From: Candidatus Saganbacteria bacterium
GTDB lineage: Bacteria; Margulisbacteria; WOR-1; JAKLHX01
Assembly (NCBI GenBank): GCA_026387835.1
Contig: JAPLKZ010000013.1
Coordinates: forward strand, 60,001 to 92,000
Direction: 5' to 3'
DNA: 32,000 bases
Shown here: positions 11,163 through 31,024 of the stretch, in pieces
How positions within the stretch are numbered: position 1 is the stretch's first letter
Layout of the letters: every line of letters begins with the position of its first letter
Program-made: the position numbers and the translations under genes
Notes under the pieces: model-generated
What the model was told of the DNA's origin: nothing
Seen by the model: only the letters and a program-made list of their open reading frames with translations
Databases searched by the model: none

Positions 11163-12602
11163 ATGATAATCAAGACCGATCAGGACACGATAAGACCATT
11201 CCTCGAGGATGCTTCAGGCCTGACCGGAGCGCACACGGATAAAGTATTCCTTGCAGAAAATACCGGAGAAGTTTCCGAATTGTTAAAAGAATGCTCTTCA
11301 AAAAATATTACCGTTACTGTCTCCGGCGGGGGCACGGGCGTGACAGGAGGCAGGCTTCCGTTTGAAGGAGTCGTTCTCGCGACGGACAGATTGAACAGAA
11401 TACTTGACCTTAAGCCTGGCTCGATAGTTGTCCAGTCCGGCGTGCCGATAACGGAAATTCATAAAGCAGCCGGTTCTATCGGATATTTTTACCCTCCGGA
11501 CGCTACGGAATGGACGGCTTTTATCGGGGGGAATATTGCCACAAACGCTTCGGGAGCGAGGACGTTTAAATACGGGGCGACGAGAAAATATATAAAGAGG
11601 ATAAAAGTTGTCCTGAGTAATGGAGATATTATCGATGTCGAAAGAGGCAGACTATTAGCAAAGAGTAATATTCTCGAAATCCGAAATACGAAATCCGAAA
11701 TTCGAAACAAATTCGAAATCCCAAATTATAAAATCCCAAATATAAAAAATGCGGCGGGGTATTATTCCAGGAAGAACATGGACCTGATCGATCTGTTCAT
11801 CGGAAGCGAAGGCACTCTCGGAGTGATCGCTGAAGCGGAATTAAGTTTGCTGAAAAAAGAGGGGTTTGTTTTCGCCTGTTTTTCATTCTTCAACAGATTG
11901 AACGACGCGCTCAACTTTGTGGCCGAAGCGAAAAAATGCGATGCGCTCGCGATAGAATTCTTTGATGCCAGGGCTCTGGACCTCTTGCGGACAAAATATC
12001 TTAACATGCCGAAAGCCGCTGCCTGCGTGTTCTTTGAGGAAGAGATCACTACGGAAAAAGAAAAAGATTATCTTGAAAGATGGGGAAACCTGCTGGAAAA
12101 ACACAATGTATCTTTGGACGACGTCTGGACATCGGAGACTCCCGAAAAAGCGCAGGAGTTCAAGGATATGAGACATTCTGTCCCCGAGCTTGTGAACGAG
12201 ATCGTAAAGAAAAGAGGCTTTCCGAAACTGGGGACGGATATTGCCGTGCCGGACAGGGCTTTTGCCGAAATGTTCGGTCTTTACGAAAAGACTTTGTTGT
12301 CCTCGAATATCGACAGCCTGATATTCGGGCATATCGGGGATAACCACCTTCACGTGAATATGCTTCCTAAAGACAGCGATGAGGCCGAAAAGGTCAAGGA
12401 CATCTATATTTCTTTTGTGAGGAGAGCAATAAGCCTGGGAGGGACCGTTTCGGCCGAGCACGGGATAGGGAAGATCAAGCACAGGTTCCTGAAAGAGATG
12501 TATGGCGACAGAGGGATACTGGAAATGACAAGGGTCAAGAAAAGTCTGGACCCGGATCTTATCTTAGGTTTGGGGAATATCTTTCCGAAGGAACTGCTTT
12601 AA
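11163..12602 (+). CDS. FAD-linked oxidase (GlcD / D-lactate dehydrogenase family)
   Basis: FAD_binding_4-type VTVSGGGTGVTGG, LFIGSEGTLGVI and C-terminal SAEHGIGKIK. It carries a repeat-derived insert (next feature). Confidence 0.85.
   Translation: MIIKTDQDTIRPFLEDASGLTGAHTDKVFLAENTGEVSELLKECSSKNITVTVSGGGTGVTGGRLPFEGVVLATDRLNRILDLKPGSIVVQSGVPITEIHKAAGSIGYFYPPDATEWTAFIGGNIATNASGARTFKYGATRKYIKRIKVVLSNGDIIDVERGRLLAKSNILEIRNTKSEIRNKFEIPNYKIPNIKNAAGYYSRKNMDLIDLFIGSEGTLGVIAEAELSLLKKEGFVFACFSFFNRLNDALNFVAEAKKCDALAIEFFDARALDLLRTKYLNMPKAAACVFFEEEITTEKEKDYLERWGNLLEKHNVSLDDVWTSETPEKAQEFKDMRHSVPELVNEIVKKRGFPKLGTDIAVPDRAFAEMFGLYEKTLLSSNIDSLIFGHIGDNHLHVNMLPKDSDEAEKVKDIYISFVRRAISLGGTVSAEHGIGKIKHRFLKEMYGDRGILEMTRVKKSLDPDLILGLGNIFPKELL
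11673..11750 (+). repeat. Heptamer-based repeat (CGAAATN units) in frame inside the FAD oxidase
   Basis: The DNA reads cgaaatc cgaaata cgaaatc cgaaatt cgaaac aaattcgaaatc ccaaatt ataaaatc ccaaata and translates to LEIRNTKSEIRNKFEIPNYKIPNIKN. Confidence 0.7.
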
Positions 12603-19219: not shown

Positions 19220-20053
19220 TCAGGTGAGAGAGTCTGATAGTCTCGCGAATTCCGCGATAGACAGCGTCTCGCCCCTTCTTTTGCCGTCGATGCCGGCTTG
19301 AGAGAGAGCCCTGTCGACTTTCTGAGGTTCAAATTTAGTAAGCAGACAATTTCTCAGTGTCTTTCGTCTTTGTGAAAATGAGGTCCTGACCACTTCAAAG
19401 AACGATCTCTCATCCTTTACATCAACAAAAGGTTTTTCTCTGATAGTTAAAAGTATTATCGCCGACCCTACTTCCGGTTGCGGCAGGAAAGAGGACTTTG
19501 GGATATACGAAACGATCTTCGGCTCGGTATGATAATTCACAAAAACGGTGAAACTTCCGTATTCCTTTGTCCCGGGTTTAGCCGTCATCCTTTGCGCAAA
19601 TTCTCTTTGGACGGTCAGTATCGCGAGCGAGATCTGTTCTTTGTTCTCAAGTATTTTCTCGATCACGGGAGTTGTGATGTAATAAGGGACGTTGGCGACG
19701 ATTTTAGTATTGGAAAAGGAAGACAGCAATGTTCCAAGGTCAGCTTTTAAGAAATCATCATTAATCAACTCCACATTTTCATGACCGGCAAGATATTCTT
19801 TCGCGGCTTCAATAATAGTTCTGTCAATTTCGAAGGTAATCACTTTCTTTGCGGTTTTTGCCAGCTCTTTTGTCAGAATGCCGGTGCCTGTTCCGATCTC
19901 GATCACCGTGTCAGACGATCGGATGTCGCCCGCTTTTACTATCCTGTCCAGAGCGGCTTTATCGACAAGAAGGTTCTGGCCAAGCGAACGTTTTAAACGG
20001 ATGTCGTATTTATTAAGGAGATGCTTAGTTTGTCCGGAAAAAGATTGTTCCAT
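19220..20053 (-). CDS. rsmA: 16S rRNA (adenine1518/1519-N6)-dimethyltransferase
   Basis: SLGQNLLVD, VIEIGTGTGILT and VANVPYYITTPV motifs, with the conserved pdxA-ksgA adjacency. Confidence 0.92.
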   Translation of the reverse strand: MEQSFSGQTKHLLNKYDIRLKRSLGQNLLVDKAALDRIVKAGDIRSSDTVIEIGTGTGILTKELAKTAKKVITFEIDRTIIEAAKEYLAGHENVELINDDFLKADLGTLLSSFSNTKIVANVPYYITTPVIEKILENKEQISLAILTVQREFAQRMTAKPGTKEYGSFTVFVNYHTEPKIVSYIPKSSFLPQPEVGSAIILLTIREKPFVDVKDERSFFEVVRTSFSQRRKTLRNCLLTKFEPQKVDRALSQAGIDGKRRGETLSIAEFARLSDSLT

Positions 20054-20090
20054 GCATTTTGAATTTCGCGCTTCGAATTTCGAATTTTTA
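20054..20090 (-). repeat. Heptamer repeat copy filling the pdxA-rsmA intergenic spacer
   Basis: The minus strand reads taaaaattc gaaattc gaagcgc gaaattc aaaatgc ATG. It runs from the pdxA stop codon to the rsmA start codon. Confidence 0.65.
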
Positions 20091-21116
20091 CTCTTTCTTC
20101 TTCAACACCATCATTGTAGCGACTTTTATGGCCTGGACCATGCTCCCTGGATTTGCCCAGCCTTTGCCGGCGATGTCAAAACCGGTCCCGTGGTCCACGG
20201 AGGTCCTTATTATCGGAAGTCCTATGGTGACATTGACAGATCTGTTGAATGACAGGAGCTTTAAAGGTATCAGTCCCTGATCATGGTACATTGCAACAAC
20301 TATATCGAACATTCCTATGTTTGCGAGATAAAATATAGCATCTGCGGATATCGGACCTTTTACGTCTATGCCAAGCTTCTTTGCTTCTTCCACCGCGGGC
20401 CGTATTATCTTTTCTTCTTCCTGGCCGAATATCCCGCCTTCACCTGCATGAGGGTTGAGTCCGGCAACTCCTATCTTGGGTGATTTACCCAGCAGCCTGT
20501 GAAGCTCTTTATCGACAAGCTTAATGAGGTTCAGTATCTTTTTCTTGTCCAGCTCTTTCGGGACCTGGGACAGGGGAATGTGCGTCGTCACAAGCGCGAC
20601 CCGGATGGAATCCGAAAGGAACATCATGGCATAATTTGTCGTGCCGGTCTTTTTTGCCAGGAGTTCGGTGTGCCCGTCGAATTTATAGCCCGCTTTGTGC
20701 ACTGCTTCTTTATTTATCGGGGCTGTCGCTATAGCGTGGACTTTTCCTTCAAGCGCAAGATCGACGGCTCTTTCCACATATTTTATAGCCGCTCTGCCGG
20801 CTTCCGCGGAGATCTTCCCGATCTTAAGCTTTGAGACCTCCACGTTGTCCATGTCGAGGATATTGATCATTCCGGCCTGGAAGTTCCCGTTGTCTATCCT
20901 TTTTATCTCGTTAAGCACGAGAGGTGATACCTTTGCAACTTTCATCGCGTTCTTCATCACCGACGCGTCCCCGATGACGACAGGCCTGCAGAGCCTGTTT
21001 ATCTCTGCCGTCGAAAGGGCTTTGATGATTATCTCAGGGCCTATGCCCGCGGGGTCTCCCATCGTGACCGCGATTATCGGCCGTTTGTCCAGATCGGCTT
21101 TGTTCTTATTTGTCAT
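20088..21116 (-). CDS. pdxA: 4-hydroxythreonine-4-phosphate dehydrogenase
   Basis: GDPAGIGPEI, GHTELLA, NPHAGEGG and VDHGTGFDIAGKG motifs. Confidence 0.92.
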   Translation of the reverse strand: MTNKNKADLDKRPIIAVTMGDPAGIGPEIIIKALSTAEINRLCRPVVIGDASVMKNAMKVAKVSPLVLNEIKRIDNGNFQAGMINILDMDNVEVSKLKIGKISAEAGRAAIKYVERAVDLALEGKVHAIATAPINKEAVHKAGYKFDGHTELLAKKTGTTNYAMMFLSDSIRVALVTTHIPLSQVPKELDKKKILNLIKLVDKELHRLLGKSPKIGVAGLNPHAGEGGIFGQEEEKIIRPAVEEAKKLGIDVKGPISADAIFYLANIGMFDIVVAMYHDQGLIPLKLLSFNRSVNVTIGLPIIRTSVDHGTGFDIAGKGWANPGSMVQAIKVATMMVLKKKE

Positions 21117-29872: not shown

Positions 29873-31024
29873 GTGAAAAAACGCATCGCAGTACTGGGTT
29901 CAACAGGATCTATCGGAAAGCAGGTACTGGAAGCAGTATCTGCCTTTCCTTCTTTATTTACCATAAACGGGCTTGCCACTAAAGGTTATCTCGATATTTT
30001 CAAAAAGCAGATAAAAGAATTTAAACCAAAGCATGCTATTGTCAACGATGAGAAAGGATTGATAAAAATTGCTACAGATCCCGGCACGGATATCGTAGTG
30101 ATGTCGATCGTCGGGACAGCGGGACTTCCGGCAACCATAGCCGCAATAAAAAAAGGAAAGACGATCCTTCTTGCAAGCAAAGAAATACTTGTTGCTGCCG
30201 GGGATATTGTGATGCCTCTGGCAAAGAAGTACAGAGCTAAGATTCTTCCTCTGGATAGCGAGCACAGCGCGGTATTTCAGTGTCTTGGAGGAAAATCCGA
30301 AATCCGAAGCACGAAATCCCCCTCGACTTCGCTCGGGGCAAGCGAAAAAAATTCAAAATTCAAAATTCAAAACAACAGAATAAAAAAAATAATCCTCACT
30401 GCATCAGGCGGGCCGTTCAGGGCATATTCAAAAGCCCAACTGAAAAAAGTGACCGCAAAACAGGCCCTGGCGCATCCTACATGGAAGATGGGGCCGAAAA
30501 TAACGATAGATTCTGCTACGCTGATGAACAAAGGACTTGAGGTCATTGAAGCGCATCATCTTTTCGGGGTTCCTTATGACAAGATCGAGGTCGTCGTTCA
30601 TCCGCAGAGCATAATCCATTCGATGGTGGAATTCACCGACGGCTCTATTCTTGCTCAGATGGGAGCCCCTGATATGAGGACTCCGATACAGTATGCGCTT
30701 CATTATCCTGACAGGGCACCGAAGAGCTTTGAGACCATCGATATTTCAAAAGCCGGCCAATTAACATTTGAAAAACCGGACGCGGATAGGTTTCCGTGTC
30801 TAAAGATTGCATATCAAGCGGGAAAAACAGGCGGGACCATGCCGGCCGTGATGTCCGCGGCGAACGATACTGCGGTCGAGATGTTCCTTAAAGGCAAGAT
30901 CAGGTTCACGGATATTCCGAAGATAGTTTTATCGGTAATGAAAAAGCATGAGTTTATCAGAAAACCTTCACTTGCTCAGATACTCAAAGCGGAGAAATGG
31001 GCGAGAACTGAAGCGGGTGTATAA
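29873..31024 (+). CDS. dxr: 1-deoxy-D-xylulose-5-phosphate reductoisomerase
   Basis: [33 protein letters not shown] and NKGLEVIEA motifs, with a GTG start. It contains a repeat-derived insert (next feature). Confidence 0.92.
30291..30376 (+). repeat. Heptamer repeat with GC-rich core, in frame inside dxr
   Basis: The DNA reads gaaaatc cgaaatc cgaagca cgaaatc - ccctcgacttcgctcggggcaagcg - aaaaaaattc aaaattc aaaattc aaaac. It translates to [27 protein letters not shown]. Confidence 0.7.

Follow-up and report, generated by a model that had tools for sequence, protein, structure and literature searches.

We analyzed a window of 32,000 nt of the Candidatus Saganbacteria contig JAPLKZ010000013.1 (by "the window" we mean this whole stretch, and all copy counts given for this genome cover these 32 kb). 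The subject is a piece of repeat DNA that lies in frame within dxr, the gene of 1-deoxy-D-xylulose-5-phosphate reductoisomerase (Dxr). We regard it as fairly probable that this insert is a nested composite of two unrelated small non-coding dispersed repeats, which is translated and tolerated in a permissive surface loop of Dxr; the estimate refers to the anatomy and the tolerance of the nested insertion. Loci or contigs of relatives and metagenomes are designated by "L" and a number (L002 is a syntenic relative), and aligned proteins by "P" and a number.

The host gene is an open reading frame (ORF) of 383 aa with the three Dxr domains PF02670, PF08436, and PF13288 (Pfam). It matches solved Dxr chains at E = 7e-94 (PDB), and its product has 100% identity with a protein in NCBI from a Candidatus Saganbacteria metagenome-assembled genome (MAG). 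The gene and the parts of the insert are as follows.

29873-31024, plus strand: dxr, the host gene (383 aa; ORF, Pfam and PDB matches)
30292-30319, plus strand: 5' half of a heptamer element, AAAATCC GAAATCC GAAGCAC GAAATCC, encoding KSEIRSTKS
30320-30343, plus strand: GC-rich mini-hairpin core CCCTCGACTTCGCTCGGGGCAAGC, encoding PSTSLGAS, nested in the heptamer element
30344-30373, plus strand: 3' half of the heptamer element, GAAAAAA ATTCAAA ATTCAAA ATTCAAA AC, encoding 10 residues

The repeat DNA proper thus occupies 30292-30373, i.e., ~82 nt (28 + 24 + 30 nt), in frame. A first-pass annotation of this DNA had described heptamers, a GC-rich core and further heptamers at 30291-30376, and this sequence is present there in the order GAAAATC CGAAATC CGAAGCA CGAAATC, a GC-rich stretch, and AAAAAAATTC AAAATTC AAAATTC AAAAC. 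The annotation was also right to place the repeat in the Dxr linker; this linker has 34 residues, not 36, and five C's, not four, stand at the junction of the heptamers and the core. Segment 30292-30319 contains the 21-mer GAAATCCGAAGCACGAAATCC and aligns with uninterrupted copies of the heptamer element in alignment A2. Segment 30344-30373 aligns to the part GAAACAA ATTCAAA TGACCAA AATTCAA AAC of uninterrupted copies. The core CCCTCGACTTCGCTCGGGGCAAGC is predicted to form a 6-bp hairpin (-7.2 kcal/mol).

The heptamer pattern has five matches in the window against 0.85 expected, and five were reached by no shuffle. The 24-nt core has one match against 0 expected; the other GC hairpins in the window are not above shuffled expectation. 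Tandem Repeats Finder detects period-7 arrays at 30293-30319, 30348-30372, 11675-11726, and 20056-20087. When periods are compared, the window has two period-7 arrays versus 0-1 at other periods, and in L002 period 7 alone is clearly enriched (five arrays versus 0-1 for periods 5, 6, and 8-11).

The insertion in the Dxr linker

Thirty Dxr proteins were aligned. Most of the close relatives (67-76% identity) have FQCLQGSAGNKIKR, with the short linker QGSAGNKIKR, and the window protein is longer by 24 residues. The Dxr structure of Staphylococcus schleiferi (6mh4) has almost no counterpart for query residues 142-167. In a neighbor-joining tree built with the linker excluded, a 10-residue linker is found in all outgroups, and long linkers are scattered over the clades beside sisters with 9-10 residues. 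These comparisons of sequences show the dxr insert to be a real in-frame insertion into a linker whose ancestral length is 9-10 residues. The first-pass annotation had proposed an insertion in a length-variable linker, and the alignment bears it out: repeat-free close orthologues have a linker of 9-10 residues, and none of them was found to have a linker of the same length as that of the window protein.

The AlphaFold2 model of the window Dxr has a mean pLDDT (predicted local distance difference test) of 89.7 and a pTM (predicted template modeling score) of 0.88, and it superposes on solved Dxr structures with a template modeling score of 0.90. Only residues 141-164, which are the insert, fall below pLDDT 50; they are located between helix 129-138 and strand 170-177. 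In the protein alignment the catalytic invariant columns are kept (D128, S129, E130, H131, and others). The inserted peptide is hydrophilic, with many K, S, E, N, and T residues. As the model and the alignment show, neither the reading frame nor the catalytic residues nor the predicted fold is disturbed, and the insert adds ~24 residues that are probably disordered.

Dxr varies in length at other places too. A second length-variable region of the clade lies in the N-terminal domain (alignment A1, columns 50-95), where ~40 residues present in other relatives are missing in P0014 and P0016-P0019, and where the window Dxr also lacks ~20 residues found in many relatives. The Dxr of L246 (P0003; L246:4544-5692) has an empty linker; close to its C-terminus a small palindrome, GAGACGCATAATTATGTGTCTC, encodes 13 extra residues (HSGETHNYVSQQY).

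Two families of small repeats

The 21-mer GAAATYCGAAGCRCGAAATYC spans what the first-pass annotation called the left arm of the insert. It also occurs in the pdxA-rsmA spacer of the window, in L002, and in at least 120 metagenome contigs with GC content from 0.31 to 0.69, against few expected by chance. The matches share sequence well past the search pattern and give a consensus of ~59 nt: AAATCC GAAATCC GAAGCAC GAAATCC GAAACAA ATTCAAA TGACCAA AATTCAA AAC. The element is contiguous and uninterrupted in at least 120 metagenome contigs, and the fixed order of its non-uniform heptamer units is common to at least 120 loci. An exact inverted partner lies within 450 nt of the element in 17 of 88 copies. 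Such hairpin copies consist of the element, a variable apex and the inverted copy, 150-220 nt in total, with predicted energies from -55 to -104 kcal/mol.

Most members of the heptamer family lie outside long ORFs. As read from the consensus, four of the six frames are stop-free, two of three on the A-rich strand and two of three on the complementary strand, and a peptide search with these four frames matched only short domain-less hypothetical ORFs. No orientation bias of the element relative to neighboring genes was seen under a crude ORF model. Among plasmids the 59-nt consensus is unmatched, to which the low-complexity filter may contribute. Only five matches were found in viral contigs, and thus the element is not phage-borne. 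One locus, L237 (a contig of 35% GC), has three matches within ~150 nt in a long mixed array of GAAATCC, GAAGCAC, GAAATTC, and GAAACTC; this array shows that the family is capable of expansion into large arrays.

The core belongs to another family, with the consensus CCC[T/C]TCGACTTCGCTC[A/G]GGGCARGC of ~26 nt. The first-pass annotation had supposed the core to be widespread in uncultured phyla, and the pattern TCGACTTCGCTCRGGGCARGC was indeed found at no fewer than 120 loci, in at least 120 genomes of many phyla, against ~1 expected. Among the matches listed, most come from Acidobacteriota. The other hosts are Patescibacteria (including Curtissbacteria), Verrucomicrobiota, Planctomycetota, Chloroflexota, Nitrospirales, Omnitrophota, Kiritimatiellae, Proteobacteria, Gemmatimonadales, Dormiibacterota, a Bifidobacteriaceae MAG, and Anabaena sp. 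WFMT. The conserved stretch begins about 4 nt before the 21-mer pattern and ends about 3 nt after it, covering some 26-28 nt. Perfect covariation links the R position to the base that precedes TCGAC (104 T-A, 17 C-G, 0 discordant), which fits a 4-bp stem CCC[T/C]/[A/G]GGG with a 12-nt loop; because there are only two states, the change may be a single inherited double change.

Two suggestions on the surroundings of the core were considered. That it usually lies in the loop of a flanking stem is only partly true, since stems of at least 8 bp flank 26% of the core copies versus 7% of controls. That it is generally flanked by heptamers was rejected, as strong period-7 flanks were found in 3 of 125 loci. 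A minority of copies is nested in other short repeats (in the window dxr, in Anabaena L054, and in L090 and L024). The core is also read in frame in a pyrroloquinoline quinone (PQQ)-dehydrogenase-like ORF (YWRDPSTSLRASGNDERIYWG) and in a Curtissbacteria ligase-like ORF, both identified by eye. In Anabaena sp. WFMT it lies inside a CCCCTGC-type heptamer array (L054:787-862), and the arrays ACTGGGG x4.1 and CTGACTC x4.4 are found near it (L054:1640-1720). The unit CCCCAGT/ACTGGGG is common to this Anabaena and the Saganbacteria relative (L002:1747-1771).

Alignment A2 brings the two families together. Uninterrupted elements match the dxr insert to the left and to the right of a 24-nt gap, which is exactly the GC core; the "arms" are therefore two halves of one ~59-nt element in direct orientation. 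Among the matches listed, the heptamer element is present at 0 of 120 core loci and a core-like motif at 1 of 120 heptamer loci. The two families are unrelated and normally reside in different genomes. The aligned copies show the dxr insert to be a one-armed copy of the heptamer element interrupted by the core mini-hairpin. The first-pass annotation had taken arm, core and arm for the full unit and the dxr copy for the most complete one. Neither holds: the arms are contiguous halves of one element split by an unrelated mini-hairpin, and the fullest form seen is the hairpin of 150-220 nt, mostly outside long ORFs, beside which the dxr copy is one-armed and interrupted.

Different small GC hairpins lie at or near the same internal point of the heptamer element in L190 and L239 (alignment A2), and the raw sequences of L198, L192, and L197 hold other GC hairpins at or next to this point. 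The hairpin of L198 directly follows GAAATCC in the raw sequence; A2 places it differently. L134, the sole heptamer-family locus among the matches listed that also has a core-like motif, is a second side-by-side case, with the core (CCTGAGCGAAGTCGAA, in reverse orientation) ~27 nt upstream of the 21-mer (L134:1320-1385).

There are two other copies of the heptamer element in the window.

11675-11747, plus strand: heptamer-element sequence in the ORF of a flavin adenine dinucleotide (FAD)-linked oxidase (11163-12602)
20054-20087, minus strand: short heptamer-element copy (AAATTCGAAATTCGAAGCGCGAAATTCAAAATGC) in the pdxA-rsmA spacer, matching the 21-mer pattern

As the first-pass annotation stated, the left arm of the dxr insert matches both, and the frame in which it is read in Dxr (SEIRSTKS) is also that of the oxidase (LEIRNTKS). 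The "oxidase insert" of that annotation turned out to be mostly a native segment of the protein subfamily, partly encoded by the element. The element-like part is ~11676-11714 (EIRNTKSEIRNKF), and the rest encodes the family-conserved IPNYKIPNIKN. The LctD structure in PDB has no counterpart for the stretch. In 21 homologues (down to 48% identity, mostly from Omnitrophota) there is a segment of equal length ending in IPxYxMPxIKNAAGY. The equal length indicates that the segment is native to the subfamily, with no net insertion, and the alignment with these homologues rules out a second clean insertion. In the Saganbacteria clade, heptamer-element sequence accounts for only ~13 of the residues (EIRNTKSEIRNKF), and the element-encoded stretch is shorter by 7 or 12 residues in relatives.

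The oxidase orthologue of L231 (10241-11710) has the canonical 21-mer at the same place. The two oxidases share 62% protein identity. Their 25 element-encoded codons are 83% identical in DNA and 72% identical at third positions, compared with 62% and 37.5% in the rest of the gene and with maxima of 73% and 62.5% in other 25-codon windows. At the level of sequence this conservation is the main evidence for DNA-level constraint or concerted evolution, and it is explained by none of the tested readings. It could be due to selection, to recurrent replacement, or to other copies acting through gene conversion.

The spacer copy occupies all 34 nt from the stop codon of pdxA to the start codon of rsmA. 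Its A-rich repeat (…CGAAATTCAAAATGCATGG; 20040-20095, minus strand) abuts the start of rsmA, and no recognizable Shine-Dalgarno sequence is seen there. The orthologous place in L002 (L002:2080-2212) holds a different element, as at the Dxr loop: ~5 TCTAAAC-type heptamers, an AT-rich core of ~65 nt that has a hairpin of its own, and inverted TTTAGAG heptamers.

Recurrence at the Dxr loop and origin of the insert

Repeats were found at the same site of Dxr in the following relatives.

L001 (an independent assembly of the Joint Genome Institute, JGI): TAAATCC-type array, 76-nt hairpin core, AAAATCC array
L002: AGGGTCC x3, +21 nt
L123: TCCAATG x6, +42 nt
L124: nested GC hairpin, +45 nt
L125: degenerate GCAGGGT array

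The repeats at the Dxr site of relatives are all in frame and stop-free. L001 has the architecture of the window dxr at the same codon, with a different core. On this evidence the loop is an insertion hotspot or a permissive site, which has been hit by at least six other small repeats in relatives. A permissive loop together with a high flux of repeats is the favored explanation of the recurrence; the high flux is supported by L002, which also has in-frame repeat insertions in rsmA (two) and leuS. Microhomology of the empty Dxr site with the element, considered as a cause of the hotspot, was not significant (p = 0.02-0.17, post hoc).

The insertions of L002 are of two kinds. One is a ~78-nt hairpin element, found in frame in both rsmA (L002:1700-1775, minus strand) and leuS (L002:14515-14595, minus strand), which consists of GGGACTA GGGACTG GGGACTA GGGGCYR, then GTAMAAACAATTCTTCC, then an inverted arm. 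In both genes the second unit has ACTG in place of ACTA, so that an in-frame TAG is lost; where GGGACTA-type units form an intergenic array (L002:16579-16604), TAG is present in all frames. The other is a second micro-insertion in RsmA (L002:1183-2079, minus strand), VRAYLPAGRHGCHTP, which is encoded by the GC hairpin CCTGCCTGCCGGCAGGCA and is absent from the RsmA of the window (19220-20053, minus strand).

The nested insertion might have arisen as follows. The heptamer element would have entered dxr first, and the mini-hairpin would then have inserted into it; this order is suggested by the junction after GAAATCC, which holds other GC hairpins at unrelated loci. Both repeats would be non-autonomous and copied in trans. 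Our best guess is a single-strand or replication-linked process, such as template switching or the action of a hairpin-recognizing nuclease, in preference to cut-and-paste transposition, because the dxr copy has neither a target-site duplication nor a terminal inverted repeat. A target-site duplication, a possibility raised by the first-pass annotation, is not seen at the dxr junctions by comparison with the empty sites of L246 and L247, and none is evident by eye at five full hairpins; a possible 5-nt duplication (GAAAC) flanks the nested hairpin of L239. Terminal inverted repeats are absent from the dxr copy, whose halves are direct, and the fullest family members have long inverted arms. 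An insertion of this kind could survive thanks to an element that is stop-free in four of six frames, a net length that is a multiple of three, and a loop that tolerates extra length. Such a survivorship filter and the high repeat flux in the lineage would together result in different repeats in the same loop of relatives.

Several observations weigh against this explanation. The length of the repeat, 82 nt, cannot be divided by three, which implies that the insertion came with loss or replacement of native codons; its exact boundaries are uncertain. Low pLDDT of the loop is expected for a segment without homologues in the alignment, so disorder is compatible with the model and unproven. No pair of empty and filled sites was found within one population, and no mobilizing gene was found among the loci read. 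Mobility is thus deduced from dispersion alone, as neither a target-site duplication nor an empty/filled pair nor a mobilizing enzyme was found. Within the 32 kb of this genome there are three copies of the heptamer family and one of the core. Arrays of different heptamer units at the Dxr site of relatives could be the turnover of one old array. Finally, the element in the oxidase is more conserved than any other 25-codon window of the gene, which is unexpected for a neutral passenger.

The last point leads to the alternative that survives best, which we nevertheless hold to be unlikely. According to it, the repeats are maintained by a role at the level of nucleic acid, for example as a binding site of a conserved host factor, a signal of RNA processing or stability, or a structural signal in DNA, and the dxr copy has been retained or re-created by gene conversion. 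Identical 21-26-mers in genomes with 31-69% GC and from many phyla would agree with this, as would the degree of conservation of the oxidase element codons (83% in DNA and 72% at third positions versus 62% and 37.5% elsewhere) and the exact fit of the spacer copy between the pdxA stop and the rsmA start. The compensatory variation in the core stem is perfect and points the same way, but with its two states it could go back to one inherited double change. At the dxr copy itself RNA structure is not significant (fold z = +0.61), and no terminator-like site is present. The Dxr inserts of relatives are wholly different in sequence, hence this locus shows no specific conservation. No Rfam family was matched: Rfam 15 gives no match in the window, and 18 other motif loci give only generic hairpin matches far below the threshold, those to MIR8562 reflecting long hairpins only. 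The lack of a detectable orientation bias relative to genes also argues against such a role.

It is considerably less probable that a native hypervariable linker grew in place by slipped-strand expansion of heptamers, with no pre-existing element inserted. Pure heptamer arrays do occur at this site in relatives, with a net gain of 21 nt (AGGGTCC x3) or 42 nt (TCCAATG x6), and in the oxidase the element-encoded stretch varies by 7 or 12 residues among relatives. Moreover, heptamer simple repeats are over-represented and variable at fixed loci between close species (PMC4692102). But the order GAAATCC-GAAGCAC-GAAATCC is non-repetitive and identical at no fewer than 120 unrelated loci, the 24-nt core is identical to copies in other phyla, and the 21-mer is found again in the window at the pdxA-rsmA spacer. 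Local slippage can produce neither the shared order of units nor the foreign core.

Selection of the extra loop for a function of the protein, e.g., for an interaction or the regulation of Dxr through a surface loop rich in Lys and Ser, seems very improbable to us. The frame stays open through the insert, the oxidase stretch has 80% amino acid identity between lineages, and inserts like the Rickettsia palindromic elements (RPE) have been suggested to give rise to new segments of proteins (PMC10969869). Nevertheless, the peptide is dictated by the repeat DNA, it is not conserved in Dxr relatives, of which many have no insert and the others each a different one, and the model confidence of the loop is below 50. 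Least credible of all is an artefact of sequencing or of assembly (short repeats in metagenomes can give rise to mis-assemblies), or a loss of the insert, through RNA processing or translational bypass, before the protein is mature: the independent JGI assembly L001 has the same architecture at the same codon, six other assemblies have other repeats at the Dxr site, all in frame and stop-free, which would be needless if the segment were spliced out or bypassed, and no intron or ribozyme match was found.

Significance and comparison with known systems

The Dxr loop, hit at least six times, is a natural experiment on insertion-tolerant sites of an essential enzyme. The sequence definitions of the two micro-repeats explain recurrent peptides of spurious ORFs (PFDFAQGR and STSLRAG types) in metagenome annotation, and they are useful for gene calling and for the recognition of inserted loops. 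They also raise a mechanistic question: 21-28 nt are identical across phyla and more conserved than neighboring codons, with no known mobilizing enzyme. A bolder proposal, which we put forward tentatively and consider rather doubtful, is that both micro-elements represent an undescribed pan-bacterial class, kept near-identical across phyla and at 31-69% GC via recognition by conserved cellular machinery. Lacking any transposase of their own, such elements would rely on template switching or gene conversion to spread, to nest in one another, and to overwrite coding loops. If this is true, both micro-elements serve uncultured lineages as a general source of new protein loops. A literature search with peptide and DNA strings returned nothing relevant.

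The closest known parallel to the event in dxr is provided by RPE (Ogata et al. 2000), which are reported to be inserted in frame in housekeeping genes, to be compatible with the protein fold, and to occur in many genes per lineage (summarized in PMC10969869). Likewise, the dxr insert is an in-frame insertion into a conserved coding gene with the fold preserved, and small non-autonomous repeats are found here in frame in unrelated housekeeping genes and translated as extra segments. The differences are substantial. RPE are ~100-150 bp long, palindromic, and confined to Rickettsia, whereas here we deal with nested pieces of 59 nt and 26 nt; the dxr copy is not palindromic (82 nt, z = +0.61), and both families span many phyla. 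The host is Candidatus Saganbacteria rather than Rickettsia, a distinction drawn without comparison to the consensus sequences of RPE-1 to RPE-10. RPE-like colonization of housekeeping enzymes in frame thus also occurs outside Rickettsia, in a free-living sibling lineage of Cyanobacteria, with far smaller elements and with nesting; the affected housekeeping genes seen are dxr, rsmA, and leuS.

Saganbacteria are siblings of Cyanobacteria, and heptamer repeats of the latter, the short tandemly repeated repetitive (STRR) sequences, were reportedly described by Mazel et al. in 1990. Our heptamer family resembles them in consisting of dispersed tandem 7-nt units at the same loci of related species, sometimes in inverted pairs, and the unit CCCCAGT is found both in L002 and in Anabaena. 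It differs in its fixed order of non-uniform units and in being A-rich, not G-rich. The G-rich heptamers of Xanthomonas and Nostoc occupy fixed loci, vary in length and sequence between related species, are mainly intergenic, and are depleted within coding sequences (PMC4692102). In contrast to such mainly intergenic repeats, there are coding copies here, in dxr (in frame) and in the oxidase.

The core has much in common with the small dispersed repeats (SDR) of cyanobacteria. It is ~26 nt long, occurs at no fewer than 120 loci, and is nested in a heptamer array in Anabaena sp. WFMT; SDR1-8 of Elhai et al. (2008) are said to be far smaller than miniature inverted-repeat transposable elements (MITE) and to insert into other short repeats. 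SDR are dispersed repeats of 21-27 nt which are reported only from Nostocaceae (PMC5861425). The core, in contrast, is present in Acidobacteriota, Patescibacteria, Verrucomicrobiota, Planctomycetota, Chloroflexota, and others; this comparison is by description only.

Like MITE, repetitive extragenic palindromic (REP) sequences, and bacterial interspersed mosaic elements (BIME), the repeats studied here are short, non-coding, hairpin-forming, multi-copy, and mostly intergenic, and the fullest heptamer copies are inverted repeats of 150-220 nt. Unlike MITE and REP, they show no target-site duplication, and neither a parent insertion sequence nor a RAYT-like gene was seen among the loci read. REP and BIME are extragenic by definition; the dxr copy is intragenic, although most members of the heptamer family lie outside long ORFs. 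To our knowledge, the identity of sequences across phyla goes far beyond that of any MITE or REP family. The event in dxr is therefore best described as in-frame colonization by repeats, which is already known elsewhere, and what is apparently undescribed is the cross-phylum identity and the nesting of two micro-elements.

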